Sequence record: OP495736.1
Direction: 5' to 3' (one strand)
From: Klebsiella phage vB_KmiS-Kmi2C
Length of the DNA stretch: 42,234 nt
Below the pieces are notes generated by a model that saw nothing but the letters and a program-made list of their open reading frames with translations, did not search any database and was not told the DNA's origin. Each line of letters begins with the position of its first letter. The first letter of the stretch is position 1. This document shows positions 1-42,234 of this stretch, piece by piece. Both the position numbers and the translations under genes were made by a program.

Positions 1-77
1 CGCTGGATGGAATAGGCATTGCCCCGGAACGATACGGAATTAGAGAACCGCTGTTACTTGAATTTAAAACTAACGGC
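1..77. repeat. Terminal direct repeat. It is identical to 42158..42234, consistent with an assembly overlap from a circular or circularly permuted genome.
   Basis: Exact 77-nt match between the window start and the window end. The reading frame of the ORF leaving the 3' end is continuous with frame 3 at the 5' end. Confidence 0.9.
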
Positions 78-533
78 ACTGGTTCAGGATATAGCAAATT
101 AATTAATGGCGGAATTCAGCTAGGGAAACCCGTTCATTTTTCCCAAATGTCAACGTATGGCACTAACCCGGCCTACGGATTTAAACACGGATTGTATTTA
201 AACACAAATAAAAATGATGACGATATTCATGTTGAAATTGTCGCATTAAGTGAAGATTTAGGCAAACAAAACATAGTTAAAGCTGAAAAGATTATATTGT
301 CAGAAACTCCACCGCCGAGACTTTCAGACAATCCGACTTTTCACAAATGCCAGTATTGCGCGGCTAAAGACGTTTGCCATACCGGGGCATTAGTTAATCG
401 TAATTGTCGTAGTTGCAAGTTTGCTAAACCTGTAGAAAATGCGGAATTCTTTTGCACTATTCATAATGGTATTATTCCGCGTGATTTTGTAATAACAACT
501 TGTGATAGTTATTCGAGCATTAACGATGATTAA
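3..533 (+). CDS. Cas4/RecB-like exonuclease, C-terminal part. It carries a QhxxY motif and a C-terminal Cys cluster of the Fe-S type.
   Basis: Frame 3 is open from nt 3 and is the same frame as ORF 147..533. Motifs seen: QMSTYG, then CQYCAAKDVCH...CRSCKF, a four-Cys cluster typical of Cas4-like nucleases. Confidence 0.65.
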   Translation: MDGIGIAPERYGIREPLLLEFKTNGTGSGYSKLINGGIQLGKPVHFSQMSTYGTNPAYGFKHGLYLNTNKNDDDIHVEIVALSEDLGKQNIVKAEKIILSETPPPRLSDNPTFHKCQYCAAKDVCHTGALVNRNCRSCKFAKPVENAEFFCTIHNGIIPRDFVITTCDSYSSINDD

Positions 534-2172
534 ACTACGTTATTATCAGGAAGATGCGATTAATGCTATTTTTAAATATTTCGGTTCGAATAAAGGAAAT
601 CCGATTTTAGCGCTTCCTACAGGAACCGGAAAAAGCATAGTTATCGCCGAATTTATTCGGCGAGTTTTGCAAACGTGGCCCGGTCAAAGAATTATTATGC
701 TTACCCACGTTAAAGAGCTAATCGCACAAAACGCCGCTAAACTGCAATCCGTTTGGCCTAATGCGCCGATGGGAATTTATAGCGCTGGCCTGAACGGTCG
801 AGATATGATGATGCCTATAGTTTTTGGCGGTGTTCAATCAGTATCTAAAGCAATTGAAAGGGAGTTAAAAGAACCAAACAATTATATTCCAGACCATAGA
901 AAACATTTCGGTCATAGAGATTTAATTATTATTGACGAATGCCATTTAGTTAGCGATTCTGAAAATACGCAATATCAATACATAATTAGCGAACTTAAAA
1001 AGATTAACCCTTACATAAAAGTAATTGGGCTAAGCGCTACGCCTTATCGATTAAAACACGGTATGCTAACCGAAGGCGATAGTATTTTTACCGATATTCC
1101 TTACGACATTACAGGGGTAGAATCTTTTAACAGGCTAATCGCCGAAGGATATTTATCGCCACTTTTCCCAAGACCGACTAACGCCGTTATAAATACAAAT
1201 GGCGTTGGCATGACTGGCGGTGATTTTAACAATAAACAAATGAGCGCTGAAGTCGATAAAGTAATTTATCAGGCTGTAAGTGAAATGGTTCAATTGGGAC
1301 AAGACCTTAAAGCGTGGTTAGTGTTTTCGCAAGGCGTAGAAAATGCCGAAAAGATTGCTTCTCTTTTAAATAGTTTTGGCGTAGACGCTTGCGCTACTCA
1401 TTCCAAATTAGGGGCTAAACAAAATGACGAAATAATAGCCGCGTACAAACACGGCGAATTAAGAGCATTGGTTAATGCAAACAAATTAACAACAGGCTTT
1501 GACCATCCACCAACCGATTTAATCGGAGTTCTACGCGCTACCATGTCGCCGGGGCTATGGGTTCAAATGCTAGGACGTGGAACAAGGCCAAGTCCCGAAA
1601 CTGGTAAAACGCATTGCTTAGTTTTGGATTTTGCCGGAAATACCAAACGACTCGGCCCGATTAATGATCCGGTTAAACCACGTAGACCGGGTAAAGGCGA
1701 ACCGGGCGACGCTATCGTTAAACTTTGCAAAGTATGCAACACGTATAACCACGGTTCAGCTAGATTTTGCGTTTGTTGTGGAAATGAATTCACATTTGAA
1801 AATAAGATATTTAAAACCGCATCGACCGAACAACTAATAGCTAGCGATTTGCCAGTAGTCGAATCTTTCAAAGTCGATAAAGTTTTATATAATTTACATG
1901 AAAAGAGAAGTAAAAGCGGGGCGCTTATGTCGCCGCCTTCTATGCGAGTAACTTATTTTTGTGGGTTAAGACGATTTGATGAATGGGTATGTTTTGAACA
2001 TAAAGGCTTCCCGCTTCATAAAGCCCACGAATGGTGGAAACAACGACACATTAGCGAACCGCCTATTTTTACATGGCAAGCTTTGCAAGTTGTTTCTGAA
2101 TTAAGAGCGCCTGAAACTATTAAAGTTTGGGTAAATAAAGACAATCCCGAAGTTATGTCGGCGGAGTGGTAA
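526..2172 (+). CDS. SF2 DEAD/DEAH-box DNA helicase with a C-terminal Cys4 zinc ribbon
   Basis: Walker A LPTGTGKS and DEAH-type box IIIDECH are present. Zinc-ribbon motif CKVCN...CVCCGNEF. The likely start is ATG 526 (MIKLRYYQ), where ATGATTAA overlaps the nuclease stop codon. Confidence 0.85.
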   Translation: MIKLRYYQEDAINAIFKYFGSNKGNPILALPTGTGKSIVIAEFIRRVLQTWPGQRIIMLTHVKELIAQNAAKLQSVWPNAPMGIYSAGLNGRDMMMPIVFGGVQSVSKAIERELKEPNNYIPDHRKHFGHRDLIIIDECHLVSDSENTQYQYIISELKKINPYIKVIGLSATPYRLKHGMLTEGDSIFTDIPYDITGVESFNRLIAEGYLSPLFPRPTNAVINTNGVGMTGGDFNNKQMSAEVDKVIYQAVSEMVQLGQDLKAWLVFSQGVENAEKIASLLNSFGVDACATHSKLGAKQNDEIIAAYKHGELRALVNANKLTTGFDHPPTDLIGVLRATMSPGLWVQMLGRGTRPSPETGKTHCLVLDFAGNTKRLGPINDPVKPRRPGKGEPGDAIVKLCKVCNTYNHGSARFCVCCGNEFTFENKIFKTASTEQLIASDLPVVESFKVDKVLYNLHEKRSKSGALMSPPSMRVTYFCGLRRFDEWVCFEHKGFPLHKAHEWWKQRHISEPPIFTWQALQVVSELRAPETIKVWVNKDNPEVMSAEW

Positions 2173-2174
2173 AA

Positions 2175-3296
2175 ATGAACGAATACGAAATCGATAATAA
2201 AGGTATTGATGATTTATTTGATGACGCGCCCAAGAAAAAAGGCCGCACTAAAAAAATCGTTGCCGTTAATCCCGCACAATCATTTTTAGATGCGGTTACA
2301 TTTGTTTCTAACGCTCAAAAGAAAACAGGTGAGCCAAATCATACCCATTGCGCTATTTCTGGCGGTTATGTTTGTGCCTCAAATGGCGAATTAACTATTG
2401 CCGCTAAAGTAGATGAAAATCTAACTATTGCCCCAAATACGTTTAAGTTAATTGCAGCACTTAAACAAGTTGTTAATGATGTTGCCATAACTAAATTATC
2501 AGAAACTAGTTTAGCTATCACTTCTGGTGATTTTAAAGCCGTTATACCTTGCTATGAAACTTCAGAAATATTTGGTATGTCCCCGCCAGATGAACCGCGA
2601 GCAACAGTTACTAATGATATTGTCGCATCCCTTAATGATGTTATGGTATTGGCTAACGATACAGCTTCCGAACCTTTATATGCTGGAATTCTAATTCAGA
2701 AAAATACTATAGTAGCTACAAATGGCGCTATAATTTTTGAGTCGTGGCATGGTATTGATTTACCTCCGGGAATGTTAATACCAAAATCAGCCGCTAAAGC
2801 TGTAGTTAAATCTAAAAAGAATTTAACTAAATTGGGTTTTTCCGAATCATCTTTAACATTTTGGTTTGATGACGATTCATTTATTAAAACTCAATTGTAT
2901 AAATTTAATTACCCACAATATGAGCAAGTTTTAACGACAACTAAAGAATATGAAGAAATTCCAGATATGTTTTTTAATGCGCTTAAAACTATTGCCCCTT
3001 TTGTGGAAGGAAACAAAGTAGTTTTTAAAAATGGTATGATTGTTACAGACTATCGAGAAGAAAACGCATCAACTTACAAAATTGATTCGCTTCCTGAAGG
3101 TGTGACTTTTAACCATAAATTTTTAATGCTACTTAAACCAGTTGCAACTAATTTTACTTTTGACGAAAATCCCGCTAAACTATACTTTTACGGCCCTAGA
3201 ACTAGGGGCGCAATTATGGGTATGAGTAACGGCGAGTTAACAAAGCATAAAGCCGAATCTCAAAACATAGAAATCGATGATGATATCCCATTTTAA
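2175..3296 (+). CDS. DNA polymerase sliding clamp, DnaN/beta-clamp-like. It has an N-terminal charged extension and a C-terminal SSB-type acidic tip DDDIPF.
   Basis: RBS ggag sits 8 nt before ATG 2175. The length, 373 aa, is close to beta clamp length (366 aa). Beta-clamp-like motifs: VATNGAI (cf. VATDGHRLA) and FNYPQYEQVL (cf. FPDYRRVLP). The last residues are EIDDDIPF. Confidence 0.55.
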   Translation: MNEYEIDNKGIDDLFDDAPKKKGRTKKIVAVNPAQSFLDAVTFVSNAQKKTGEPNHTHCAISGGYVCASNGELTIAAKVDENLTIAPNTFKLIAALKQVVNDVAITKLSETSLAITSGDFKAVIPCYETSEIFGMSPPDEPRATVTNDIVASLNDVMVLANDTASEPLYAGILIQKNTIVATNGAIIFESWHGIDLPPGMLIPKSAAKAVVKSKKNLTKLGFSESSLTFWFDDDSFIKTQLYKFNYPQYEQVLTTTKEYEEIPDMFFNALKTIAPFVEGNKVVFKNGMIVTDYREENASTYKIDSLPEGVTFNHKFLMLLKPVATNFTFDENPAKLYFYGPRTRGAIMGMSNGELTKHKAESQNIEIDDDIPF

Positions 3297-3309: not shown

Positions 3310-5271
3310 ATGCTTGACAAAGACGGATTTATAGCCATAGGTAAGCAACAACCAACCGAACTAGCTAAACTGGTTAGACGCGAAGCAAAGCCTATTGTTC
3401 GTTTTTCAGACGAAGAACTAATGTCGCTTACTCCGGGAAGCGTTTTAGTTTTTGATATAGAGTGCTATATGAATTTTTTCTATATAGCGTTTAAATGCCC
3501 GTTATCTGGAAAAGTAGTCGATTTCGAATTGTCGGCGCGTTCACAAATTAACGTTATGAAACTACAGTTTATATTGTGGCGCTTCCTTATTGTGGGCTTT
3601 AACTCTAATGCTTACGATATGATGATGATTAGATTATGTTTAGAAGGTTTGCAACCTGTAGAATTAAAAGGATGGTCTAACCAAATAATTAATAGTGACA
3701 TGCGCGATTGGCAAACCGAACAACTTATAAATAAAGAATTCGGTAAAAAGCCATTTAACATAAACCACATCGATTTAATTGAGGTTTGCCCATTACAAGC
3801 TTCGCTAAAACTTTATGGCGGTCGATTGCATTCTACACGTATGCAAGATTTACCGTTTGATCATATGTCCGAATTAGAAGACAATGAGAAAGACGAAGTT
3901 ATTTATTATTGTGCTAACGATTTAGACGTAACTATTTTACTATTTGTAAATCTTAAAGACCAATTAGAGTTACGTTGTAGTTTATCGGAAGAACACGGCA
4001 TAGACTTACGTTCTAAATCTGACGCGCAAATCGCTGAAGCCGTAATTAAAAAAGAAGTAGAACGAATTACAGGATTTGCACCGCAAAAACCAAAGATAGA
4101 ATACGGCAAGAAATTTAAATTTATACCGCCTGACCATTTGCATTTTCAAACTGATTATATGAAGGAAAAATTTAATCAAATTTTAAATATGGAATTTGAA
4201 ATAAATGATAAAGGTACTGTAGTTTTAGAAGATTTAAGCGGATTTGACATTACTATAGGTAAGACTGTTTATCGAATGGGAAAAGGCGGTTTGCACAGTA
4301 AAGAAAAAATAGCATCGTATCGAGCTAATGAAAATATGCGTATTGTAGACCGTGATGTAGAATCATATTACCCACGAATGATTTTAAACTCCGGTTTATA
4401 TCCAGAAACTATGGGGCGCGTATTTTTAGATGTATTTGAAGTTATTGTAGACCGTCGATTAGCCGCTAAACATTCTGGCGACAAAAAAACTGCCGATAGT
4501 TTAAAAATCACCATTAACGGAACGTTTGGAAAACTAGGTTCTAAATATTCCGCAATGTATGCGCCTAATCTGTTAATTCAGGTAACTGTAGGCGGTCAGC
4601 TAAACCTTTTAATGCTTATCGAAATGTTAGAACTATACGGAATAACCGTAGTTAGTGCTAACACTGACGGTATTGTTAGCTTAGTTGAAAAGCATCAAGA
4701 AGAAGCTTTCTTAAATATAATTACAGGATGGGAACATTTAACTAAACTTAAAACAGAAGAAACCGAATATAAGGCGTTATTTAGTCGCGATGTTAACAAT
4801 TATATCGCAGTAAAACATGATAATTCGTGCAAGCTAAAAGGGACGTATTCTAACCCGTGGGCAGATGAGAAAATGGCAATTTTCCGTTTTCATAAAAACC
4901 CCGTTCACACAATTTGTATTGAGGCTGTAACCAAATTAATAACCGAAAATATACCGATTGAAAACACGATAGTAAATTGCAAAGATATAACTAAATTTAT
5001 TATTGTGCGTAACGTTAAGGGCGGCGGCGAAAAAAACGGTATTTATTTAGGTAAGGCTGTAAGGTGGTACTATGGCGCTGGTGAACGTGGCGCAATAAAC
5101 TATGTGGCAAGCGGTAATAAAGTGGCAACTAGCGAAGGCGCTATTCCTCTAATGGATTTGCCAAATGAATTACCTAAAGATTTAGATTACGAAAGATATA
5201 TTAATATAGCTAGTGAAATGCTATATGATATTGGATATTATAGACGCCCTGAGCAAATTATGTTTTTCTAA
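3310..5271 (+). CDS. Family B DNA polymerase, compact at 653 aa, with an N-terminal 3'-5' exonuclease domain
   Basis: Exo I FDIE. Motif A DVESYYPR (DxxSLYPS-like). Motif B KITINGTFG (KxxxNSxYG-like). Motif C ANTDG (DTDS-like). RBS aaagg before ATG 3310. The C terminus is ...EQIMFF. Confidence 0.85.
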   Translation: MLDKDGFIAIGKQQPTELAKLVRREAKPIVRFSDEELMSLTPGSVLVFDIECYMNFFYIAFKCPLSGKVVDFELSARSQINVMKLQFILWRFLIVGFNSNAYDMMMIRLCLEGLQPVELKGWSNQIINSDMRDWQTEQLINKEFGKKPFNINHIDLIEVCPLQASLKLYGGRLHSTRMQDLPFDHMSELEDNEKDEVIYYCANDLDVTILLFVNLKDQLELRCSLSEEHGIDLRSKSDAQIAEAVIKKEVERITGFAPQKPKIEYGKKFKFIPPDHLHFQTDYMKEKFNQILNMEFEINDKGTVVLEDLSGFDITIGKTVYRMGKGGLHSKEKIASYRANENMRIVDRDVESYYPRMILNSGLYPETMGRVFLDVFEVIVDRRLAAKHSGDKKTADSLKITINGTFGKLGSKYSAMYAPNLLIQVTVGGQLNLLMLIEMLELYGITVVSANTDGIVSLVEKHQEEAFLNIITGWEHLTKLKTEETEYKALFSRDVNNYIAVKHDNSCKLKGTYSNPWADEKMAIFRFHKNPVHTICIEAVTKLITENIPIENTIVNCKDITKFIIVRNVKGGGEKNGIYLGKAVRWYYGAGERGAINYVASGNKVATSEGAIPLMDLPNELPKDLDYERYINIASEMLYDIGYYRRPEQIMFF

Positions 5272-5305: not shown

Positions 5306-6707
5306 AAAGAGCGTTGTAATAAGCTTCCGCTTGAACTTCCGATAGTTCTTCCGCCCAATAAACAATTTTCTTAATGTGGCCTGTAAACCAGTTAGTCGAA
5401 CCTAAATAACCGCGACCAACACAAAGCCTATTAAGCGAAACTGGCATAGTAGCCGGGTTAGCATATGCCCACACCTGACCATCATAAACTTTCATTGTTT
5501 TAGATGCCGTGTTAAATAAACAAATAGCGGATTGTTCCGAATCGCTAACCGGGGCTAATGACGGGATATTAACAGAAACGTTAGTGCCGCCTACGGCATT
5601 TAATTCACCAAATGCGGCTTGCCCGTACATATTATCGCGAGTTCTATAAGCTAAACGATAATGCGCTCCCTCTTCGGTGTTATCTAAAACAAAAACACAA
5701 GCCAATGACTGATAAGCCGTAGACAATAATTTTAAAGAAAACGGATGTTTCATTAATGCGAAACACGTTCCTTTAGTCGGGTCGATTAGCGTGTAACCCG
5801 TTGGCGTTGTCATTAAGTCAGCTTGTCGTGTAACTTCACCGCCTGACGTTGGGATGTAAGAAGTATACCCGGCAGCACGTTCAGCCTGAGACGCCCAAAT
5901 ATAGACCGAACCCGGAGACGTTGACGGATAAGAAGGCGTAACATCAGACGCGCTATTATTATTAATTAACGCGATAGTAAATTGAGGGTCTTCCGCAACA
6001 GTAGGATTAATAGTAATCGAGCACCTAAACCAACCGTTAGGGAATTTTTCAATATTTGCTTGCAACAGATTTGCAGTGCTTAATGTAACTTTGCCCGAAG
6101 ATAAATCGAAGTTTGCATATTGTGGGCTAGACACACCAGCTAACGCCGCTAACTGAACTTTTGTAGCGGTATTTGCTTTAATAAACGTGCTGAACGTATA
6201 CGGTTCACCAACTACAGCCGCCATAGAAACCGAAGTAGCTAATTTACGTTGTGACGGGGTGGTTGTGTCAGAAGTCGATTCAATTATTTTGGTGGCGGTC
6301 TTATTTCCGTTAGGGGCAATGGCATCATTAGCCGTTAACGTTAATCCTGTTTGCCCCCAATTAGCCGCCGAATAGTTTTCGCTATTTACAATTCGGTTTG
6401 TAGCATTATATTCAGCGCGAAAACCTAAACATTCTAAGCTGTTTTGGTCATATTCAATAACAACTTCATTAGCCGCCGCGTATTTTATTAGCCCATCATT
6501 ACCAACATAAGTAGCAATAGATGCTCTTTGAAATGACATTACATCCGCTGCCGAATTGCCGCGTAAAACTGAACCCGCTGCCGTTTTTCTGACAAACTGG
6601 CTATTTTCAAAATCTAAAAACATAATCGCGTTAACTGGTAACGGCGCGTCAGAAGAAACTAAAGAATTTCCAATGTATTTACCGTTTGATTTTAATTCAA
6701 GTGACAT
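5304..6707 (-). CDS. Tail fiber / second receptor-binding protein (structural, distal tail)
   Basis: 467-aa ORF, the last of the tail operon, immediately after the tailspike. Composition rich in Ser/Thr/Asn/Gly. No enzymatic motif recognised. Confidence 0.4.
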   Translation of the reverse strand: MSLELKSNGKYIGNSLVSSDAPLPVNAIMFLDFENSQFVRKTAAGSVLRGNSAADVMSFQRASIATYVGNDGLIKYAAANEVVIEYDQNSLECLGFRAEYNATNRIVNSENYSAANWGQTGLTLTANDAIAPNGNKTATKIIESTSDTTTPSQRKLATSVSMAAVVGEPYTFSTFIKANTATKVQLAALAGVSSPQYANFDLSSGKVTLSTANLLQANIEKFPNGWFRCSITINPTVAEDPQFTIALINNNSASDVTPSYPSTSPGSVYIWASQAERAAGYTSYIPTSGGEVTRQADLMTTPTGYTLIDPTKGTCFALMKHPFSLKLLSTAYQSLACVFVLDNTEEGAHYRLAYRTRDNMYGQAAFGELNAVGGTNVSVNIPSLAPVSDSEQSAICLFNTASKTMKVYDGQVWAYANPATMPVSLNRLCVGRGYLGSTNWFTGHIKKIVYWAEELSEVQAEAYYNAL

Positions 6708-6709
6708 AA

Positions 6710-8665
6710 TTATTCTCCGATTGCGCCGTCGTTATTTCGTTTAAATACGTTGGTTTGAGTGCCTGTTAAGTTTATGCTATTGTTAATATTTCCAACGCAA
6801 TGATTATCTGTAATTTTAACATCGGTTAAATTTCCAGAAATATTAACAGGATAATTTTGTGTTTTGGTAGTTTGCAAATCGCGAATTGCGTTATTTACAA
6901 TAGAAGAACCTGTAAACGGAACATCGATTTTAATAGCGTCTCCTGTTTCACTTTTTCCGTTTTCGTAAATTCTATTGTCTTTTATATCCATATTTTCTAC
7001 ATTACCTTTTTCTAAATAAATTCCATGTCGCCCATTATGATAAATTTCATTATCGTAAATGGTATTGTTTACATTTTTAACAGTGGAAACAGAATAATTA
7101 AAATTAATTCCGTCTTTAGCATTATCATAAATATGATTATTACTAAAAACATATTGCCCGGTTAATGGGTCAGTTTTATCACAAATCGAAGAAACACCAT
7201 TTTCGGTATTACCTCGGATAATGTTACCTTCCATTCTACCGCGACGCCCCGGTTTACCATCGTGATTAGTACCCGGATACATTAAAAATCCATGTACGTT
7301 ATTACGAAGACTATTATTTTTTACTAACAGACCTTCAATCCCACAATCTGCGATACCCGCGTAATTGTTAAGACATACGTTTTCAGCGCAAATAGCATCT
7401 TGTGCATTACCTGAACCCTGAGGTTCGAAAAATATACCGTAATTTTTATTATTAGTGCAAAGGTTTTGAGAAACAAAAATAGGTTCGCTATCCCATGCGC
7501 CAGTACCTAACCCTATACCCGATGCACCTAAAGAACCTACAGCCGCCAATCTTCCGCAATTGTCTACTTTGTTTCGTGTTACATAAACATTAATAGGCAT
7601 ATCCGTACCGATCCCGGTAGCACCAATATTTAAAATTTCCATACTATCAATTACAGTATTAGAATAAAATTGCAAAAATATACCTTTTATCCCAGGAACA
7701 TAACCGGAATTAGGGTCTAACGTCTGGTTTTCACCGTCAATCGTAAATTCAGAAAATAAAAGATTATCGATGTAATTAGTTTTACTTCCGCGAAATTCGA
7801 AAGCTGATGTATATCTAAATGGTAATAGTTTAGTTAAACCTTTGCCAGCGCCAATAAAGCCTACATTAGACATCATTATTAAACGTCTTGACAAGCGGTA
7901 AGAACCTTTAGGGATATATATTATACCACCGCCGATAGAGTTAACAAAAACAATCAGTCGTTGTAAAACGTAATAACAATCTTCTGAACCGTTTTGTTTT
8001 AATCCATAATCGCGAGCGTCGAACACTCGGCGAGTGTCAATTAAATTTTTTAATCGTTTGTTAATATTTTTAAAATTATTTTGAACGCTTCCGGTTAAAT
8101 TAGGAAGATGCAACCCGCCAAAATCATCAATTTTTTCGTATACAGCTTTGTTAGCGCCAACGATATTTAAAATATGTGGGGATTTATTTTCAGAAAGCGG
8201 TTTTATTTTTTTGTTTAAACTTTCGATATTATCAGGTGTAAAAATAGCGCCTTTATCATCTACAACTTGACTAACTACCAGTTGCGAATCATAAGTAATT
8301 TGTAGATTTAAATTATCGCTTTTACCTATTAAGCTTGCAATAGCCCCGGAAGCTAGAGTAGCTACAATTTCGGCAGTTCCGTTATTGTTAAGATAATAAA
8401 TAAATGCTAAGTCGCTATCTTCCCCTTGTGGCACCCTAAAATACTGACCATTGGTTGTATTAGCCAGCCCCTGAGAAACGGAAGGGTAAGTAGCTTCGGC
8501 AAATGAAACGTTATTTACCAAATCAACTAAAAATTTAGAAATAGAAGGGTAAGTAGCGCCAGTTCTGGTAACTACAGTTACAGTATTGTCACCATTGATA
8601 AACAATTGCCAAGAATTAGCGTCTAACGATGCGTTTTCTAATTGCGTTTTTGTAATAACAGTCAT
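6710..8665 (-). CDS. Tailspike with a right-handed parallel beta-helix (pectate-lyase-like) domain; putative polysaccharide depolymerase
   Basis: Repetitive beta-helix rungs: NNVHGF, IYDNEIYHNGRHGIYLE, NNHIYDNAKDGINFN, NNTIYDN. There is an N-terminal particle-binding domain. Confidence 0.7.
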   Translation of the reverse strand: MTVITKTQLENASLDANSWQLFINGDNTVTVVTRTGATYPSISKFLVDLVNNVSFAEATYPSVSQGLANTTNGQYFRVPQGEDSDLAFIYYLNNNGTAEIVATLASGAIASLIGKSDNLNLQITYDSQLVVSQVVDDKGAIFTPDNIESLNKKIKPLSENKSPHILNIVGANKAVYEKIDDFGGLHLPNLTGSVQNNFKNINKRLKNLIDTRRVFDARDYGLKQNGSEDCYYVLQRLIVFVNSIGGGIIYIPKGSYRLSRRLIMMSNVGFIGAGKGLTKLLPFRYTSAFEFRGSKTNYIDNLLFSEFTIDGENQTLDPNSGYVPGIKGIFLQFYSNTVIDSMEILNIGATGIGTDMPINVYVTRNKVDNCGRLAAVGSLGASGIGLGTGAWDSEPIFVSQNLCTNNKNYGIFFEPQGSGNAQDAICAENVCLNNYAGIADCGIEGLLVKNNSLRNNVHGFLMYPGTNHDGKPGRRGRMEGNIIRGNTENGVSSICDKTDPLTGQYVFSNNHIYDNAKDGINFNYSVSTVKNVNNTIYDNEIYHNGRHGIYLEKGNVENMDIKDNRIYENGKSETGDAIKIDVPFTGSSIVNNAIRDLQTTKTQNYPVNISGNLTDVKITDNHCVGNINNSINLTGTQTNVFKRNNDGAIGE

Positions 8666-32779: not shown

Positions 32780-33424
32780 TCAATTATTAAGCGCCGGAAC
32801 AACGATTTTAAACATTCTTCCGCCTGATTCGTATTTTTTAGAACTTACGTCTTTAGCTAATTCGATTAGATAGCCTTTTTCAACAGCCAAATCAACCAGT
32901 CTTTGAATCTCTTTAGTAGCGCCATTAACAGCATTACGAATAGATTTTTTACGTGCTAATTTACGATGCAAATAAGTATAAGTAATCACATTGTCAGGTT
33001 TAGTTTTATTAGATAGAGCACAATACGACATTGCCGTAGAAACTTCAGATTCCAAATAAACTTTTACAGTTTCTTTAAATTCTTCTTCGTTTTCTTCCAT
33101 GCTATCAGAATTGCCCACATTGTTAGCCAGCAAACGGAATAACCTGTAAAAAGATTCAACTTTAGAACCTTTAGGAAGTTGCGAAAACTCTAACCAATTT
33201 TGCGCTTTATGTTCCACCAGAACTACAGGTAAATCAAAAGCCGTTTGTGAATCGTTTAGAATCTGTTTTAGCAATTCATATCTATAGCTATCAATCCTTA
33301 TAAGAATTGATTTTTCGTTGTTAGATTCGTCTTTGAATCGTTCAGCAATCCGATTAACTAACAAAACATGTTCTTTATATTGGCAAATAATCGGCGAAGG
33401 TTCGTAAATAGTTTCGTCGTACAT
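32780..33424 (-). CDS. Early protein whose C-terminal domain is paralogous to the C-terminus of the primase-helicase (putative DNA-binding domain)
   Basis: VITYTYLHRKLARKK..NGATKEIQRLVDLAVEKGYLIELAKD compared with IIPYAYLHKKLARNV..TGATNAIKKALQTMMDRGDLLEISKP. It is the first gene after the AT-rich promoter region. Confidence 0.55.
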   Translation of the reverse strand: MYDETIYEPSPIICQYKEHVLLVNRIAERFKDESNNEKSILIRIDSYRYELLKQILNDSQTAFDLPVVLVEHKAQNWLEFSQLPKGSKVESFYRLFRLLANNVGNSDSMEENEEEFKETVKVYLESEVSTAMSYCALSNKTKPDNVITYTYLHRKLARKKSIRNAVNGATKEIQRLVDLAVEKGYLIELAKDVSSKKYESGGRMFKIVVPALNN

Positions 33425-33995: not shown

Positions 33996-35267
33996 TTACA
34001 TGCTACGATGAACGAAATCAATAAGCCTGTTAAATGCGCTAATTTTATTGTTGTATTCTCTTGTACTGCCAGCTATTTTTCTTATTTCATTATTGACTAA
34101 ATCATAACGCTGATAATGTGAATGTCCGAATCCTGATTTCGATTTACCACAATAAGCGATAGCCAATTGTGATAACCAGATTGGAAAGTGATATTCTTCA
34201 CCATTATCTTTAACCGAAATGCTTCCATCATCTTTAAGCTCAAACTGATAGTTTACATGTTCAGGTTCGGCCCTGATTCCACGGCCTATAAGTTGAACGT
34301 AAAGTGGTTCATTATCAATTTTTGAAGACGCTCGTTTTAATTGCTTTTCGAATTCAGCAAGAATGTTTCTATGCTTAATATTTTGAAAAGCCATTCGTTT
34401 CAATTCCGCTTGCATAGCTTCAGAATTGAGAAACTTGTCAATCTCCCCGGCATATTGCGGTTCAGTCGCTGGCGTAATGTGGGCATCGTTGCTAAATCGG
34501 TTTAGTTCCGGCGATACTGCGTTATCTCCGGTTGGCTGGTGTAACCCTACAGCCTCACCGCAACGAGGGCTAATATAGACGCTGGCGGAAGTTGTGATTA
34601 CGTCTCTTACGCTGTAAACGCTAAAGCCTTCGGACATAACTTTGATAAAAGAAACGCCTTCATTAACGGCTAGTTCATCGGCTTTAACTAAAGCTTTTGT
34701 TAATTCTGAAGCTCGATTAATTCTTGCTATTATTTTGTCAGTTGCATTTTTAATTACTTGTTGCGCCGTTTGGTTTTGCCATTCAGCCTTAGTAACGAAT
34801 GGGCCTTGCTTTCTGGTTTTAAGCCATACGCTAAGAAATTCCGCGCTAATCATTGGAATACCTAACGACAATGCCCGGTTGATTTTAAGCGCGTTAGGCG
34901 CATTGCCCACAATAAGAAAATCGCAATCTTTCGACACGACCCCTTTACGGGAACCCGATTTATAATCTTTAGCTAAAAGTTCACATAGTTCGTAACGGTC
35001 ATAAATCGTTCCGGTTAATGCATAGCTTTTACCAGTTAAAAAGTTTTCATCTTCGATTAAACAATCGTTAATGATAAGAAAATGATTATCACCTAAATTT
35101 TGTTCGCAGAAATTTAAAAAACGATCTACGATGTTGCCCGGTTTTACTTCTTCAGGTTCGACAAGCATAACCGTTTTTTCATCTTCTTGTATTACACGAA
35201 TAACGCGTAAAGGGTATTTGCCCGGTAAAGGACATTTGCCATTAATCAGTCTGGTTTCAATTGTCAT
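33996..35267 (-). CDS. BRCT-domain-containing early protein
   Basis: LTGKSYALTGTI...VVSKDCDFLIVGNAPNALKINRALSLGIPMISAEFL fits a BRCT fold of the type at the LigA C-terminus. No ligase KxDG motif. ATG 35267 sits 9 nt after GAGG; the track start is a TTG codon. Confidence 0.5.
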   Translation of the reverse strand: MTIETRLINGKCPLPGKYPLRVIRVIQEDEKTVMLVEPEEVKPGNIVDRFLNFCEQNLGDNHFLIINDCLIEDENFLTGKSYALTGTIYDRYELCELLAKDYKSGSRKGVVSKDCDFLIVGNAPNALKINRALSLGIPMISAEFLSVWLKTRKQGPFVTKAEWQNQTAQQVIKNATDKIIARINRASELTKALVKADELAVNEGVSFIKVMSEGFSVYSVRDVITTSASVYISPRCGEAVGLHQPTGDNAVSPELNRFSNDAHITPATEPQYAGEIDKFLNSEAMQAELKRMAFQNIKHRNILAEFEKQLKRASSKIDNEPLYVQLIGRGIRAEPEHVNYQFELKDDGSISVKDNGEEYHFPIWLSQLAIAYCGKSKSGFGHSHYQRYDLVNNEIRKIAGSTREYNNKISAFNRLIDFVHRSM

Positions 35268-35469
35268 GATTATTAACCTCAATTTGAATAAAAATATCTG
35301 ATTTCTCAGGGTTTGTTAAATCGATTGAACTTAATTCAATTAAAACGTTATTTTGTTCGCTTAACTGATTATAAAGTTCTTCGATTCTGCTAACAGGTAG
35401 CAATAAAAGATAAGTTGGATTTTTACATATCTGATAAAAAGGCATTATTAAAGAGGCCATTTTATTCAT
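35257..35469 (-). CDS. Hypothetical protein (70 aa)
   Basis: ORF overlapping the next gene's start by 11 nt. Confidence 0.35.
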   Translation of the reverse strand: MNKMASLIMPFYQICKNPTYLLLLPVSRIEELYNQLSEQNNVLIELSSIDLTNPEKSDIFIQIEVNNHDN

Positions 35470-36089: not shown

Positions 36090-38402
36090 TCATATCCCAA
36101 ACGCTTTTGGGTTTGATATTGAAAACGCTCTTTGTGCGGTTCCGTATTCGGTTACTAGCTTCGGCTTTGATATCTCTAACAAATCCCCCCTATCCATCAT
36201 AGTCTGAAGCGCTTTCTTAATGGCATTCGTTGCCCCGGTTCGGTCTTTCTTAAAGTGAACGTTTCGCGCTAACTTCTTATGAAGGTATGCGTAAGGAATG
36301 ATGCGTTCACTATGCAATCTGGCGTTAGCTTCCCCGGCGTAAGGTTTGACTTCTGACCAGCTAGCAGTAACGTAGGTTTTAACGATTTCGCAAAGCTTAG
36401 AAATTTGTTGCGTTTCTTCGTTGTTAACGCCTACTTCGCCCATATCAAAGCGACGCATAATGTTATTAGCATCGGCTAAAACAAGGTTAATCGCCCATGT
36501 TGCCATATCGGAATTAATAACCGGGTCATAAGGGTTACATCCAACGGCTATCAATGCCGAAAGCTTAAGCGCTTTAATGTGGGCGCGGTTCCATAGTTCC
36601 GAGTTAACTTGATTGTTACTAGCCCTCATATTGTCATCGACATACAAGTTAAACTGTTTAAGCATTTGCGTAGCGTTTTCGTCTAACTGAACTTCTATCG
36701 CCTTATGTTGGTTGTTCAGGTTAAGGCAGTTAGCGCAAACTTGAGCGGTTTTATCAATCAAATCAAATTCAGGCCTTACATGTAAATGATTTTCGTTTAA
36801 ATACGGGCGTTTTCCATAGTATTCAATAATGGTAAAACGTGGTAACAATCCTTCGGTAATCATTCCTTCGTGTAAACCTTCGTAAAATCTTTCGGGCGTC
36901 GATTCACCTAACAACGTTACAGCCGGGGCTAAAATGTTATCTGTATTCTTTTCTCTATCGCTATAGATACTTTGCTTTAACATTTTTCCGTTACCGGATT
37001 TGTTATAGATATCGAGCAACATTCTACGCAAACCTAACATATGCGGCGAAGCGTTCACACTTCCCATTTGTTGTAAATGCAAACCAAATTCGCCAATCGT
37101 ACTAACAAAGCTTTTAGATGATTTCGACAAATATTTAATTAATGCTTGCGGCGAATTTATTTCTCCCGGCCCTATAAATTCCATCGCCGAAGGAACCATT
37201 TTAACAACTTCTCGCATTATTAAATCGATACCACTTGAAATAGCTTCTTTACCCGTACCAGTACCAGCGAGCAATAAAACATATTGGTTAAGGCCAGTAC
37301 CGGAAATGTTGTAAGCCCTGCCCACAATACCAGCAAACAAACCTATTGCCCCGGCTAAAGCAATTTCGGGAACCGGGCGAGGTGCGGCAGCGTAAATAAA
37401 CTGCGCTATTTCTCCTACCAGACCAGGCGGAACGGTAAACGCCGAGGTTACAGGCGTCGCAACTTCCGTAACATTTTGCGGGATAGCTTCAGCGATTTGC
37501 GATTGTGGAATATCGGCATTTTGCATCCTTTTTTCGATTATAGCGTTTATCTGGTCGCGTAGCCCTTCGATATCAACAGGCGGCAACATACGGTCAAAAC
37601 ATTTATCAAGCGCATATTTTAATCGATATTCGGCGCGGGATTTTTCGCGCTGGCCTAGCATAGAAGCTAAAAATAATTTTTTTACTTGTGCCCGGTTTTC
37701 ACTATAGAAAGCGATAATATCAATTAAAGCTAAATCGGCTTCAGATTGCGAAGGATAGTATTTTTGCCAGTTTCCATTGTCGTATAATTCTATGAATTTT
37801 TCGGCGTTTGCAGCATTACGCGCCATAGACATAACTTCTTCGTCAGTTCGTTTAGCTTTGTCTAATCCAGCGTAGTATGCTGTAGCGTTTGGCCCTTTGC
37901 CCATTTGAAGCCACAACGCATTGAATAGCGAATCGTAATCTTTAATGCTTTCATTACGGAAAATGTTTCCCGTCATCGTCATAAAACGAAGATTCGAATA
38001 TACTTCAATCGACGAACGTTTACGGCCTGAAGGAATGGAACCCTTAATAATGATATGTAATCCGGTGCCACTCGGCGAGCGTTCAGCATAAGAAACGAAT
38101 TCGTTATAGATTCGTAATTGTCTATCTGCGTTACCCTGATCGCCTTTAGTATCGTCTAAGTCAATAAATCCGTAAGGGTCATTTTCAGTTAAAACGAATC
38201 CTAATCCTGAATACATGCCAGAATTAAGAGCGCCTAAAGCGTCGTGATAGCTTCCCCATGTAGAAGAATCGTTAACCTTAGCCATTCTTCCATTTATAGG
38301 GGAGTAAGGAATCTTAGTCGGTTTGTCGCCTTCGGATTCTTCGAAGCGCCAAACAACCCATTGGTTATAAGCCCGCATTTCTACGGGAATGTTATCGAAC
38401 AT
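36090..38402 (-). CDS. Bifunctional primase-polymerase / SF3 (D5-like) helicase with a C-terminal putative DNA-binding domain
   Basis: The N-terminal prim-pol region WVVWRFEESEGDKPTKIPYSP...GLGFVLTENDPYGFIDLDD resembles that of P4-alpha/D5-like primases. Walker A LLLAGTGTGKE. The C-terminal 60 aa are shared with ORF 32780..33424. Confidence 0.75.
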   Translation of the reverse strand: MFDNIPVEMRAYNQWVVWRFEESEGDKPTKIPYSPINGRMAKVNDSSTWGSYHDALGALNSGMYSGLGFVLTENDPYGFIDLDDTKGDQGNADRQLRIYNEFVSYAERSPSGTGLHIIIKGSIPSGRKRSSIEVYSNLRFMTMTGNIFRNESIKDYDSLFNALWLQMGKGPNATAYYAGLDKAKRTDEEVMSMARNAANAEKFIELYDNGNWQKYYPSQSEADLALIDIIAFYSENRAQVKKLFLASMLGQREKSRAEYRLKYALDKCFDRMLPPVDIEGLRDQINAIIEKRMQNADIPQSQIAEAIPQNVTEVATPVTSAFTVPPGLVGEIAQFIYAAAPRPVPEIALAGAIGLFAGIVGRAYNISGTGLNQYVLLLAGTGTGKEAISSGIDLIMREVVKMVPSAMEFIGPGEINSPQALIKYLSKSSKSFVSTIGEFGLHLQQMGSVNASPHMLGLRRMLLDIYNKSGNGKMLKQSIYSDREKNTDNILAPAVTLLGESTPERFYEGLHEGMITEGLLPRFTIIEYYGKRPYLNENHLHVRPEFDLIDKTAQVCANCLNLNNQHKAIEVQLDENATQMLKQFNLYVDDNMRASNNQVNSELWNRAHIKALKLSALIAVGCNPYDPVINSDMATWAINLVLADANNIMRRFDMGEVGVNNEETQQISKLCEIVKTYVTASWSEVKPYAGEANARLHSERIIPYAYLHKKLARNVHFKKDRTGATNAIKKALQTMMDRGDLLEISKPKLVTEYGTAQRAFSISNPKAFGI

Positions 38403-39706: not shown

Positions 39707-40414
39707 ATGAATGTTCGCGATTTGCAACCATCCGGTAATCTTGCTAAGAAATTCGGCGTTAAGTCGATTGTTTACGGCAAGGCCGGAATTGGTAAAACGC
39801 CGATTGTTCAAACTGCACCGCGCCCGGTATTACTTGCTGCTGAACCGGGTTTGTTATCCATGAAAGGGACTAATATTCCGACATGGGAATGTTACGATAT
39901 TAATAATCCGACTGATACAAAAAAATCATATAACAGGGTTATTGAATTTTTTGATTGGTTTTTCCGTTCTAATGAGTCGAAAAATTTTGATACTCTAGCT
40001 ATTGATAGTTTGTCGCAAATTTGCGAAATTATTTTACGTTACGAATTAGGGCGTAATAAAGATGGGCGAAAAGCTTACGGCGAATTATCCCGCTTTATTA
40101 TGGAAAGTATTTGCGAACCTTTATACTATATGCCTAATAAGCATTTGTATTTAATTTGCAAACAATCTGTAAATGACGAAAACGGGCAAGCTGTCAAATG
40201 TCCGTATTTTCCGGGGCAAGATTTAAACGTTAAAATTCCGCATTTATTTGATGAAATTTTGCATTTAGATGAATATAATATTCCCGGTGTAGGTAAACAA
40301 GTCGCTTTTCGTTGTAAGCCGAGTTTTGATACTAAAGCTCGCGATAGAAGCGGTATGTTAAACGAGTTCGAACCGCCAAACCTCGGCAATATTTTTGCCA
40401 AATGTTCACAATAG
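39707..40414 (+). CDS. Sak4-like RecA-fold recombination ATPase (AAA_24 type)
   Basis: Walker A YGKAGIGKT near the N-terminus. Walker B TLAIDSLS. About 235 aa. Adjacent to an SSB-like gene. Confidence 0.65.
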   Translation: MNVRDLQPSGNLAKKFGVKSIVYGKAGIGKTPIVQTAPRPVLLAAEPGLLSMKGTNIPTWECYDINNPTDTKKSYNRVIEFFDWFFRSNESKNFDTLAIDSLSQICEIILRYELGRNKDGRKAYGELSRFIMESICEPLYYMPNKHLYLICKQSVNDENGQAVKCPYFPGQDLNVKIPHLFDEILHLDEYNIPGVGKQVAFRCKPSFDTKARDRSGMLNEFEPPNLGNIFAKCSQ

Positions 40415-40443: not shown

Positions 40444-41178
40444 ATGGCCCAATTAATCAGCCCATTCAACCCGAATAACTACAACCCGGAACAAAGCGCT
40501 GGGCAAATGCCTATCGGTAAACATCCGGTAGTTATTGAAAGTTCTGAAGTAAAAGCAAATAAAGCTAATGACGGCGGGTATTTGCAATTTAATTTAAAAA
40601 TTATTGACGGCCCTAATGCTGGTATTACTGGCCCTTATCGCCTTAATCTTTATCACGCTGACCAAACTACTTGTGAAATTGCTAATCGCCAGCTTTCGGC
40701 AGTTTGCCACGTTGTTAATGTTTTCGGTGATTTGACAACTACCGATCCGCTTCACAATATTCCTTTTATTGTCGAAGTAGCTCCACAGAAAAAAGACCCG
40801 CAATATACGCAAGTTGTTAAAGTATTCGATATTAACGGCAACGAACCGGGCAAAGCGCCAGCAGGTCAGGCACAAACCCAACAAGCGCAACAGCCCACAC
40901 AAGGCGGCGCTGGTCAACAGTGGGGCGGTCAACAGCAACAACCAGCTAACAACGGCGGTTGGGGCCAGCCTCCGGCAAACAATGGTCATCAACAGCCGCA
41001 AGGCCAGCCGGAACAACAGCCTAACGGCGGTCAGCAATGGGGAGCGCCAGCAGGGGGCCAGCAACCAGCATGGGGGCAGGGTAGCCAGCAAACGCAACAG
41101 CCGCAAGGCGGCGCTAATAACTGGCAGCAACAACCAGCTAACGGCAATGCTGGCGGGGTTCCGTGGGGCCAGAAGTAA
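40444..41178 (+). CDS. SSB-like protein. Its long Gln/Gly/Pro-rich C-terminal tail carries WG repeats and lacks an acidic tip.
   Basis: N-terminal domain of about 140 aa, then QQWGGQ..GGWGQP..QQWGAP..PAWGQG..NNWQQQ..VPWGQK. In composition the tail resembles the E. coli SSB linker GGWGQPQQPQGG. Confidence 0.5.
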   Translation: MAQLISPFNPNNYNPEQSAGQMPIGKHPVVIESSEVKANKANDGGYLQFNLKIIDGPNAGITGPYRLNLYHADQTTCEIANRQLSAVCHVVNVFGDLTTTDPLHNIPFIVEVAPQKKDPQYTQVVKVFDINGNEPGKAPAGQAQTQQAQQPTQGGAGQQWGGQQQQPANNGGWGQPPANNGHQQPQGQPEQQPNGGQQWGAPAGGQQPAWGQGSQQTQQPQGGANNWQQQPANGNAGGVPWGQK

Positions 41179-41225: not shown

Positions 41226-41729
41226 ATGGGCAAATATCAAGATGTTTTACCCGCGCCTAATTCTTGTGATTGTTGCGGGTCAAAGAGAATAGTTTTTATC
41301 AAGTCTGACCGTAAAATTAAATCTACGCAATGGCCTTATATTTGGTTTTGCAAATCTTGTAAAGCTTCCGTTTTTTGTCATCCTGAAACTAATAACCCTT
41401 TAGGCTACATGGCCGATTCTAAAACAAGATTATTGCGTAGAATTTTACATATTAAATTCGATGTTATATGGAAATCTGGTAAACTAGGACGGCGCGATAG
41501 CTATAGATGGTTAGCGCTAAAGCTAAACATTCCTTTTGACAATTGCCATATTTCATGGCTAACGCCGAGGCAATTAAAAAGCGCTATTTCGATTGTAGAA
41601 GATTTTTTAAACACTCAAGAAACAGAAAATAAGGTAAATAAAAATGAGCGAAAACGAAGAAAAGAAAAATACAAACGAGATAGATTTAAATACAAAAGGG
41701 GTTATGTCACAACTTTCGAAACAGATTAA
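41226..41729 (+). CDS. Zinc-ribbon protein with a highly basic C-terminus
   Basis: CDCCGS...CKSCKASVFCH. Tail ERKRRKEKYKRDRFKYKRGY. Confidence 0.45.
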   Translation: MGKYQDVLPAPNSCDCCGSKRIVFIKSDRKIKSTQWPYIWFCKSCKASVFCHPETNNPLGYMADSKTRLLRRILHIKFDVIWKSGKLGRRDSYRWLALKLNIPFDNCHISWLTPRQLKSAISIVEDFLNTQETENKVNKNERKRRKEKYKRDRFKYKRGYVTTFETD

Positions 41730-42234
41730 ATCTGATATCGACGAATATTGCGAAAAGAAATTTGATGATGGTTTTCGCTGGCATTTAGGCGCGTCGTTAA
41801 TTGGTCACGAATGCAAACGATATTTGTTTTATGTGTTTCGCTGGTGCTTCAAAGAAAAATTCGATGGGAGAATGCAACGCCTGTTTAATCGTGGGCATCG
41901 CGAAGAAGAACGTTTTATCGAATGGTTAGAAGGTATTGGCTTTACTGTTTACGCTGACGATTGGTCTAATTGGTCATTATATTGGCATAGTGAAAGCGAT
42001 TCCTATTTTGTTGATAAAAAGGATATTGATTTACATGCTGGCGGGTATGATTTGGTAGATGTTACCGACAACGAAATCCATAGAAAAATAGCTAAAGCTA
42101 TGGGGGTTAAGTTTAAACAATATCGTATAAGCGAAGTTAACGGGCATTTCGGCGGGTCGCTGGATGGAATAGGCATTGCCCCGGAACGATACGGAATTAG
42201 AGAACCGCTGTTACTTGAATTTAAAACTAACGGC
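41644..42234 (+). CDS. Cas4/RecB-like PD-(D/E)xK exonuclease, N-terminal part. The gene continues at 3..533 across the contig junction. The full protein is about 348 aa.
   Basis: Open frame with no stop to the window end: MSENEEKK...GGSLDGIG...LLEFKTNG. The RecB-type motifs D and ExK are present. The ATG at 41644 lies downstream of an aagg motif. It overlaps the 3' end of the upstream ORF by 86 nt. Confidence 0.6.
   Translation, partial: MSENEEKKNTNEIDLNTKGVMSQLSKQIKSDIDEYCEKKFDDGFRWHLGASLIGHECKRYLFYVFRWCFKEKFDGRMQRLFNRGHREEERFIEWLEGIGFTVYADDWSNWSLYWHSESDSYFVDKKDIDLHAGGYDLVDVTDNEIHRKIAKAMGVKFKQYRISEVNGHFGGSLDGIGIAPERYGIREPLLLEFKTNG
42158..42234. repeat. Second copy of the 77-nt terminal direct repeat
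   Basis: Identical to 1..77. Confidence 0.9.

Follow-up and report, generated by a model that had tools for sequence, protein, structure and literature searches.

A sliding clamp with an SSB-type C-terminal tail in Klebsiella phage vB_KmiS-Kmi2C and its candidate readers

The DNA analyzed here, referred to below as the window, is the whole 42,234-nucleotide sequence of Klebsiella phage vB_KmiS-Kmi2C (sequence record OP495736.1), and the gene in question occupies its positions 2175 to 3296. We found that this gene encodes a homolog of the bacterial beta clamp DnaN whose last six residues, DDDIPF, are the same as the C-terminal hexapeptide (SSB-Ct) of SSB, the E. coli protein that binds single-stranded DNA (PMC5872125). 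An ending of this type is kept by most database homologs of the clamp, and in most related loci with a tail-less clamp it is found on a small protein encoded just before the clamp. Comparison of these loci indicates that it is the replication module, and not only the clamp, to which the tip belongs. We propose, tentatively and as something short of probable, that the tail is an SSB-Ct-type tether with host SSB partners as its putative readers, amongst which we favour chi, a subunit of the clamp loader of the host.

The clamp core and its tail

The gene and the parts of its product are the following (pLDDT, the predicted local distance difference test score, comes from the structural model described below).

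2175-3296, plus strand: phage beta-clamp homolog gene, 373 codons plus stop (open reading frame (ORF) and translation)
2202-2228, plus strand: N-terminal acidic-hydrophobic patch GIDDLFDDA, residues 10-18, low pLDDT
2232-2255, plus strand: Lys/Arg-rich stretch KKKGRTKK, residues 20-27
2271-3221, plus strand: three-domain clamp core, residues 33-349, pLDDT mostly above 90, beta-alpha-beta repeat, full-length DnaN alignment
3222-3275, plus strand: flexible acidic linker, residues 350-367, pLDDT 53-57
3276-3293, plus strand: SSB-Ct-type tip DDDIPF, residues 368-373, extreme C-terminus

That this ORF encodes a beta-clamp homolog of three-domain length had been proposed in an earlier reading of the DNA made without database searches (the sequence-only reading), and structure prediction bore it out. 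An AlphaFold2 monomer model built from a 57-sequence alignment had a mean pLDDT of 87.9 and a predicted template modelling (pTM) score of 0.81, with most of the core above 90. When the PDB was searched with Foldseek, the 50 best matches listed were all bacterial DnaN clamps (E~1e-18, template modelling (TM) scores of 0.71-0.73, 12-16% identity), and the alignments ran over about 360 columns, which is essentially the full length of DnaN chains of 356-384 amino acids (aa). The predicted structure confirms that the product is a three-domain beta-clamp (DnaN-fold) homolog, and this architecture suggests a dimeric ring. Since Foldseek gave a DNA-clamp fold and not an oligonucleotide/oligosaccharide-binding (OB) fold, the clamp is not itself an SSB and carries the SSB tip alone.

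A Pfam scan of the clamp matched no family even at E<=10, so that it is not captured by the DNA_pol3_beta models, and a PDB search with its sequence returned chance matches only. The motif pairings proposed earlier, VATNGAI with VATDGHRLA and FNYPQYEQVL with FPDYRRVLP, were reproduced when the clamp family profile was aligned to E. coli beta with hhalign, which also paired GVTFNHKFL with EIGFNVSYVL. This alignment is statistically weak (probability 2.9%, E=0.015) and was used only to support the motif pairings. Because significance at the sequence level is weak, the assignment rests on the structural match. Amongst phage proteins, PHROG 947 ('DNA polymerase processivity factor') matched residues 31-352 with E=7.7e-57 (profile positions 6-365 of 368), and 302 phage records carry homologs under the names replicative clamp, Pol III beta or processivity factor. 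The family comprises 1,734 clusters (50% identity) at E<=1e-3 and 809 at E<=1e-30, and the motifs W191-H192-G193-x-D195 and T182-N183-G184 inside the core are family-invariant.

Compared with DnaN (E. coli beta, 6fvl; P. aeruginosa, 6pth), the phage clamp has the same three-domain fold over about 320 core residues (TM about 0.72), shares the positions of the T-[DN]-G and F-P-x-Y motifs, and is likewise accompanied by a polymerase with a clamp-binding-type end. It differs by its low identity, its lack of a Pfam match and its two extensions, of which the one at the N-terminus is Lys/Arg-rich and the one at the C-terminus is acidic, about 24 aa long and ended by DDDIPF. It also differs in that no clamp-loader-like protein was found amongst the proteins encoded in the window, so that the clamp would probably use the host loader. 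To our knowledge, neither E. coli beta nor any other cellular beta clamp has such a C-terminal extension.

The translated ORF ends ...NIEIDDDIPF, with the stop codon right after; an in-frame GTG at 2166 is an alternative start that would add three residues. The linker reaches past the end of the tail-less clamps of the family and, judged by the full-length fit of the model to DnaN of about 366 aa, past the end of canonical beta clamps. The identity of DDDIPF with the SSB-Ct hexapeptide had been noticed in the sequence-only reading, and the tail proved to be conserved: 86 of 107 database homologs (27-99% identity) end in hydrophobic-P-F, 74 of the 107 in exactly IPF. Amongst the 89 tips tallied, 76 have D at position -5 and 82 have D or E at position -4; positions -6 and -8 are mostly acidic and -7 is often Y, F, L or M. 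The extended clamp pattern, [DE]-[YFLM]-[DE]-D-[DE]-I-P-F, resembles the D-[FL]-D-D-[DE]-I-P-F of bacterial SSBs. In a non-redundant search (50% identity) the tip was carried by 50 of the best 150 clusters. It is conserved, nearly invariant and host-identical, across clamp cores diverged to about 35% identity. On these counts the DDDIPF ending is far beyond chance. Neither outcome that the sequence-only reading had named as speaking against it, a structure without the beta-clamp fold or a tail that relatives do not share, was observed.

Measured against a hidden Markov model of the core, the C-terminal extensions of tailed homologs (linker plus tip) are 9-64 aa long, with a median of 23 and a median net charge of about -5, and tail-less members end 2-7 residues beyond the last strand. 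Apart from the tip, the linkers of the homologs show no sequence conservation. Because the linker is unconserved and variable in length, and because its pLDDT is low, the tail has, in alignment and model alike, the signature of a tethered SSB-Ct-type short linear motif. As in SSB, the hexapeptide stands at the extreme C-terminus after an acidic, disordered and length-variable linker; unlike in SSB, where there are four tips per OB-fold tetramer on single-stranded DNA (ssDNA), it stands on a sliding clamp, with two tips per dimeric ring expected on double-stranded DNA. The bacterial SSB-Ct is a hub for chi, PriA, RecQ, ExoI, RecO, DnaG and other proteins.

The N-terminal extension also carries the acidic-hydrophobic patch GIDDLFDDA that had been pointed out earlier. 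The patch is present, but it is specific to the small clade of the window (closest relatives P0001-P0004 and L002). At the equivalent site most other tailed clamps have D-N-[VI]-P-[LI]-P and the Rhodobacter-like clade has PxDVLAAA, and all of these variants precede a Lys/Arg-rich stretch. The K/R-rich extension (median net charge +4) is common to tailed and tail-less members of the family; tail-less clamps accompanied by the small adaptor described below are mostly without the N-terminal motifs. As a separate observation, Rhodobacter-phage-like clamps (P0017, P0021, P0028, P0029, P0033 and L032) have, right in front of the tip, a cluster of cysteines such as ...GRDCQCPDCEIPF and ...GCACADCEIPF (C-x-C-x-x-C-EIPF), which may bind metal or form disulfides.

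The tip and other C-termini in the replication module

The sequence-only reading had described the tip as a feature of the clamp. It is conserved there but is not clamp-specific, being found also on a small Cys4 protein that is zinc-ribbon-like, on the helicase and once on the exonuclease. We compared 80 related IMG/VR loci and PaMx42. Sequence reaching far enough upstream was available for 33 loci whose clamp is tail-less; in 27 of these, the helicase gene is directly followed by a small ORF that precedes the clamp gene, and its product ends in [IV]PF, usually after acidic residues (e.g. ...IVSGCKDHDFEIPF). These proteins are 65-130 aa long, belong to PHROG 23504 (function not assigned in PHROG), have no Pfam match and share the pattern C-x-N-C...C...PP...GC-x-x-[HWY] with the end [DE]x[IV]PF. 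They are encoded at the following places.

L017, 9254-9505: small tip-carrying protein
L033, 9367-9606: small tip-carrying protein
L072, 9154-9390: small tip-carrying protein
L083 (Sphingomonas phage Lucius), 3746-3979: small tip-carrying protein
About 25 other loci: small tip-carrying proteins

In their Cys4 pattern they are homologous to the mini-domain at the C-terminus of the Cas4-like exonuclease (hhalign probability 93%, E=3.6e-7; reversed control 0.37), and the last ~45 aa of the exonuclease of the window are such a Cys4 mini-domain, homologous to the small tip carrier of the sister phages. The PHROG 23504 protein is likely a replisome adaptor carrying an SSB-type tip. In the 77 loci with enough upstream sequence, clamp tail and small protein are distributed as follows.

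Tailed clamp, small PHROG 23504 protein absent: 42 loci
Tail-less clamp, small PHROG 23504 protein present: 27 loci
Tail-less clamp, small PHROG 23504 protein absent: 6 loci, two with visibly degraded tails
Tailed clamp, small PHROG 23504 protein present: 2 loci

In a tree of clamp cores, the loci with the small protein form one clade nested among tailed lineages. Homologs of the window helicase that end in DDDIPF were found in three phages (E=1e-94 to 1e-147).

L110, 2-1126: DDDIPF-ended helicase
L111, 4836-6536, minus strand: DDDIPF-ended helicase
L134, 870-2774: DDDIPF-ended helicase

L111 also encodes a DUF669 SSB ending PPWKR, and no clamp gene was detected in the DNA retrieved for L111 and L134, which are short contigs. 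In L078, whose clamp is tail-less, the Cas4-like exonuclease (6613-7638) ends ...DSDIPF and the small adaptor ends ...FDIPF. A scan of phage ORFs for DDDIPF-TAA endings gave at least 117 ORFs; amongst the matches listed, most are SSB-type proteins of several folds, and helicases, a primase and several unknown families occur as well. The exact tip is also borne by PHROGs 862, 1811 and 6599 (unknown function), and helical-looking proteins of 73-76 aa (M..F[IV]EAL..KY[ED]AEI...IGEHPQF...) end in DDDIPF in L092, L102, L108, L133, L162 and L192, which suggests that its use in phage proteins extends beyond the SSB families. The Queuovirinae-type relatives CAjan, RHEph04 and Me-ZS1 were excluded from the tip system: their clamp is tail-less, no small protein bears the tip and their polymerases do not have the FF end.

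The proteins of the window with which the clamp could act are encoded as follows.

502-2172, plus strand: superfamily 2 (SF2) helicase, directly upstream of the clamp; Pfam ResIII/DEAD/Helicase_C; PHROG 16, E=4e-96
3310-5271, plus strand: divergent family-B DNA polymerase (PolB), 653 aa; PHROG 1252, E=6e-198
36090-38402, minus strand: primase or primase-helicase belonging to this replication system; PHROG 3022 'DNA primase', E=1.5e-251
39707-40414, plus strand: Sak4-like RecA-family ssDNA annealing ATPase; Pfam AAA_24; PHROG 124 'Sak4-like', E=5e-42
40444-41178, plus strand: phage SSB of the DUF669 / PHROG 6015 type; Pfam DUF669; PHROG 6015 'single strand DNA binding protein', E=4e-75
1-533, plus strand: Cas4-like (RecB-family) exonuclease, C-terminal part; PHROG 1990 'Cas4-domain exonuclease', E=7e-38
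~41644-42234: Cas4-like exonuclease, N-terminal part, same gene, split by the contig ends

The helicase and polymerase that flank the clamp gene in the sequence-only reading were both upheld by Pfam, PHROG and structure matches. The SSB-like gene had been described there as having a Gly/Gln/Pro linker and no acidic tip. The C-terminal half of the DUF669 SSB is indeed Gly/Gln/Pro-rich and has no acidic tip, but the protein is not tip-less: it ends ...GGVPWGQK (41158-41175), and endings of the type ...PWG[QA][RK] are found in most orthologues from the 80 related loci, with variants PAWGKR and PPWSQ. Judged by its orthologues, the phage SSB bears a different, conserved and non-acidic end, PWGQ[RK], which is possibly a determinant for Sak4. 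In the relatives L140 and L186 the Sak4-adjacent DUF669 SSB ends ...VPPWAAKPAEGLDDDIPF, with VPPW and then ...EGLDDDIPF, and other DUF669-like SSBs elsewhere end in DDDIPF. The window-type SSB looks like the version without the acidic tip.

The polymerase, whose structural relatives by sequence are family-B enzymes only, in weak matches (S. solfataricus PolB1 1s5j, E. coli Pol II and Pol alpha), ends ...PEQIMFF (5251-5268), a C-terminus that resembles a clamp-binding motif. Orthologues end QISFF, QLQFF, xSLFF or LFD[F]. Of 46 distinct polymerase C-termini, 35 have F at position -1 and 42 have F or L at position -2; the commonest residue of positions -3 and -4 is L, and positions -5 and -6 are mostly T, Q, A or E. 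This end indirectly supports a real clamp-polymerase pair. E. coli Pol II ends QLGLF, and Pol II with beta, like gp43 with gp45 in T4 and RB69, tethers a family-B polymerase via its extreme C-terminus. The tether here would be the same, with ends QIMFF, QISFF or xLFF. T4, however, encodes the loader gp44/62 and a trimeric clamp, whereas here the clamp is beta-like and loaderless and bears a second docking motif of its own. The primase orthologues share a conserved C-terminus, ...P[KG][AV]FG[LI] (ISNPKAFGI in the window), which is reminiscent of the L-G-L end of the clamp-binding hexapeptide and may mark a second clamp client. All helicase orthologues have a strongly conserved acidic-aromatic C-terminus, Y-P-E-[IV]-[LM]-S-[AY]-E-[WYF] (NPEVMSAEW in the window, 2146-2169).

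Candidate readers of the tip

In the mechanism that we propose, the beta-type clamp would be the processivity factor of the adjacent family-B polymerase, which would dock on it via its own C-terminal motif (...QIMFF), and the acidic disordered tail of ~24 residues on the last strand of the clamp would be a flexible tether reaching into the SSB-tip-binding pockets of other proteins. Phage ssDNA coated with the DUF669 SSB could not recruit SSB-tip readers because that protein has no acidic tip. The tip would instead be supplied by another replisome component: here by the clamp, in the sister clade by the Cys4 adaptor, and by the helicase in yet other phages. The likeliest client would be the host SSB-partner network, and specifically chi: an SSB without the tip would break the chi link, and a tip on clamp, helicase or adaptor would restore it at the fork. 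Chi-psi is described as connecting the clamp loader with SSB by way of the C-terminal tail of the latter (PMC13213242; PMC3632105). We favour chi because the phage has a clamp but no loader, and because the chi-SSB-Ct contact normally holds the loader on template coated with SSB. That such a tail could redirect the host SSB interactome, for example by binding host chi, had been suggested in the sequence-only reading and stays a proposal here. An exposed tail with binding in trans is our inference, as is the receptor that takes it.

Three observations led us to favour readers in the host. The tip is host-identical and stays almost invariant while the clamp cores diverge to ~35% identity. The clamps of the Rhodobacter phages RcTitan and RcHartney end in DDEIPF, the tip typical of SSB in alpha-proteobacteria (LDDEIPF in R. 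sphaeroides and in 5,795 alpha-proteobacterial assemblies; PMC13490951). Finally, motifs presumed to be phage-internal, such as the polymerase ends and the NDYPPF of phage HK620, drift more. Clamps of named Stenotrophomonas phages and of Pseudomonas phage PaMx42 end in [DE]DDIPF or SDDIPF. We consider doubtful, and the less likely of our own proposals, a more general version in which the tip is a portable replisome plug, with which phages whose DUF669 SSB has no such tip regain the chi link on the clamp, on the exonuclease-derived Cys4 adaptor or on the helicase.

Several points weigh against host readers. Readers of SSB tips can be encoded by phages, as with Sak4 of HK620, the window encodes a Sak4, and five clamp tails end in DNFPPF, which together make a serious rival. 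The match of DDEIPF to a host tip comes from one phage clade and from R. sphaeroides rather than R. capsulatus data; a scan of bacterial genomes for host-labelled clamp copies gave only two contigs, both from metagenome-assembled genomes, and the case for host tracking is therefore that of the Rhodobacter-phage clade. The complementarity between tail and small protein is suggestive, as the clamp tree points to essentially one switch, a few losses and one regain (the pair with both), and the locus counts are for this reason not independent. The small proteins are invariant only in [IV]PF, and their acidity varies. No other tip carrier was found within the DNA retrieved for four loci with neither tail nor adaptor (L016, L024, L031 and L050), so the tip does not appear to be indispensable.

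The strongest rival is thus a phage-encoded reader, which we regard as possible though with a lower probability than host readers. The acidic tail with its terminal Phe would bind a replication or recombination protein of the phage, most plausibly Sak4, or else the polymerase, the primase, the helicase or the DUF669 SSB. Such binding would connect the clamp with recombination-dependent replication or hold the replisome of the phage in order, much as the tails of T7 do. Sak4 of HK620 requires the last six residues (NDYPPF) of its DUF669 SSB (Hutinet et al. 2018, PMC5928155). That phage has the same Sak4 and DUF669-SSB gene pair as the window, and its acidic ...PPF tip, which the DNFPPF of the five clamp tails resembles, recruits a phage protein; there, however, the tip is on the SSB, whereas in the window the SSB ends PWGQK and an acidic IPF tip is on the clamp. 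Modules with the tip almost always encode Sak4, DUF669 SSB, helicase, exonuclease and PolB where the loci are long enough, and a recombination exonuclease can bear the tip (L078). In T7, which is without a sliding clamp, the acidic, aromatic-ended C-terminal tails of gp2.5 and gp4 dock through their terminal Phe on the phage polymerase; Kong and Richardson reportedly described this binding in 1998. These are likewise flexible docking tails on components of a phage replisome, but they are not identical to the host SSB tip. A phage reader would also have to be squared with the constancy of the clamp tip (IPF, acidic from -4 to -6) when polymerase ends drift (LFF, SFF, MFF, LFD, SLI) and when HK620, an E. 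coli phage, has NDYPPF. The SSBs keep a PP[WF]-type motif (PWGQR here, YPPF in HK620, VPPW in L140), which may be the Sak4 determinant and would leave DDDIPF to another reader. In addition, tail-less lineages retain all the same phage proteins.

Two further explanations rank lower than a phage-encoded reader. The tip could be a decoy that competes with host SSB for ExoI, RecQ, RecJ, PriA or chi, shutting down host replication and repair or protecting phage DNA. Identity of the tip with the host SSB-Ct and the free small tip-bearing protein of the sister phages, which fits a soluble competitor, speak for it. We nevertheless consider it improbable: a dimeric clamp loaded on DNA would compete poorly, in stoichiometric terms, with an abundant tetrameric SSB, the carriers are always replisome components within the replication operon, and there is no evidence of toxicity or host shut-off.

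Least probable of all is that IPF folds back into the peptide-binding cleft of its own or the partner protomer, next to which the tail emerges, and excludes host clamp binders until the phage polymerase displaces it. The Cys4 protein and the helicase of sister phages would in that case be ordinary clients of the clamp, with IPF as their clamp-binding motif. The tail does begin right after the last beta-strand of the model (residues 343-348), the equivalent C-terminal residues of E. coli beta help to form the binding cleft, I-P-F resembles the L-G-L end of the clamp-binding hexapeptide QLVLGL, and helicases, exonucleases and small proteins are kinds of protein that commonly bind clamps. AlphaFold2 nevertheless leaves the tail undocked (pLDDT 53-57), its conserved acidic residues and the aromatic residue at -7 fit SSB-Ct and not clamp-binding motifs, and the cognate polymerase motif is clearly of a different class (Q/T-x-x-L-x-F-F). 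It also counts against such self-binding that the exact tip is, amongst the matches listed from the wider sample, mostly on SSB-type proteins of several folds, and that the helicase tips of L111 and L134 come with no clamp gene in the DNA retrieved.

Wider relevance and genome setting

The clamp family is known and widely annotated, and the SSB-Ct motif is textbook knowledge. Full-text searches of the literature turned up no account of a sliding clamp with an SSB-Ct tip, of the tip-carrying PHROG 23504 protein, or of the PWGQ[RK] end of DUF669 SSBs. A paper that tables gp28 of DLP1 and DLP2 as 'replicative clamp' does so by BLAST identity to the clamp of phage PA25 only, and does not describe the tail. 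If host readers including chi take the tip, the phage clamp would be the first known sliding clamp with its own loader-recruitment tag, and the loading of a clamp with ~13% identity to host beta, without a phage loader, would be explained. Many phages have a beta-type clamp without a loader, including the Septimatrevirus and Titanvirus groups, which contain therapeutic Pseudomonas and Stenotrophomonas phages (PaMx42, Ab26, DLP1 and DLP2). A conserved clamp tip identical to that of the host is a concrete handle on clamp loading and host integration in these phages. Because the tip moves among clamp, helicase, exonuclease and adaptor while the SSB bears a different conserved end, the comparison points to exchangeable linear motifs at C-termini as the wiring of phage replisomes. 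SSB-Ct interactions are already being pursued as antibacterial targets, and phage proteins that naturally mimic the tip would be instructive there too.

With a GC content of 39%, the window makes up a complete, circularly permuted siphophage genome of ~42 kb. An identical exonuclease peptide, LDGIGIAPERYGIREPLLLEFKTNG, is encoded at both of its ends, and the exonuclease gene is split because the contig ends overlap within it. The clamp ORF starts directly after the helicase stop (2172), two bases on, and the polymerase ATG (3310) is 13 nucleotides past its end. A megablast search of the phage collection with the first 8 kb found no close nucleotide relative, the sole match being 89 bp at 80% to Idiomarinaceae phage 1N2-2. 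The gene order (Sak4, DUF669 SSB, small Zn-finger protein, Cas4-exonuclease, helicase, clamp, PolB) is that of Septimatrevirus, for example PaMx42. The early/replication region also contains two ORFs on the minus strand, of which one (32780-33424, 214 aa) is like the C-terminal part of the primase (PHROG 3022 positions 687-781, E=2e-9; PHROG 29311) and the other (33996-35282, 428 aa) has a weak BRCT or NAD-ligase-like match only.

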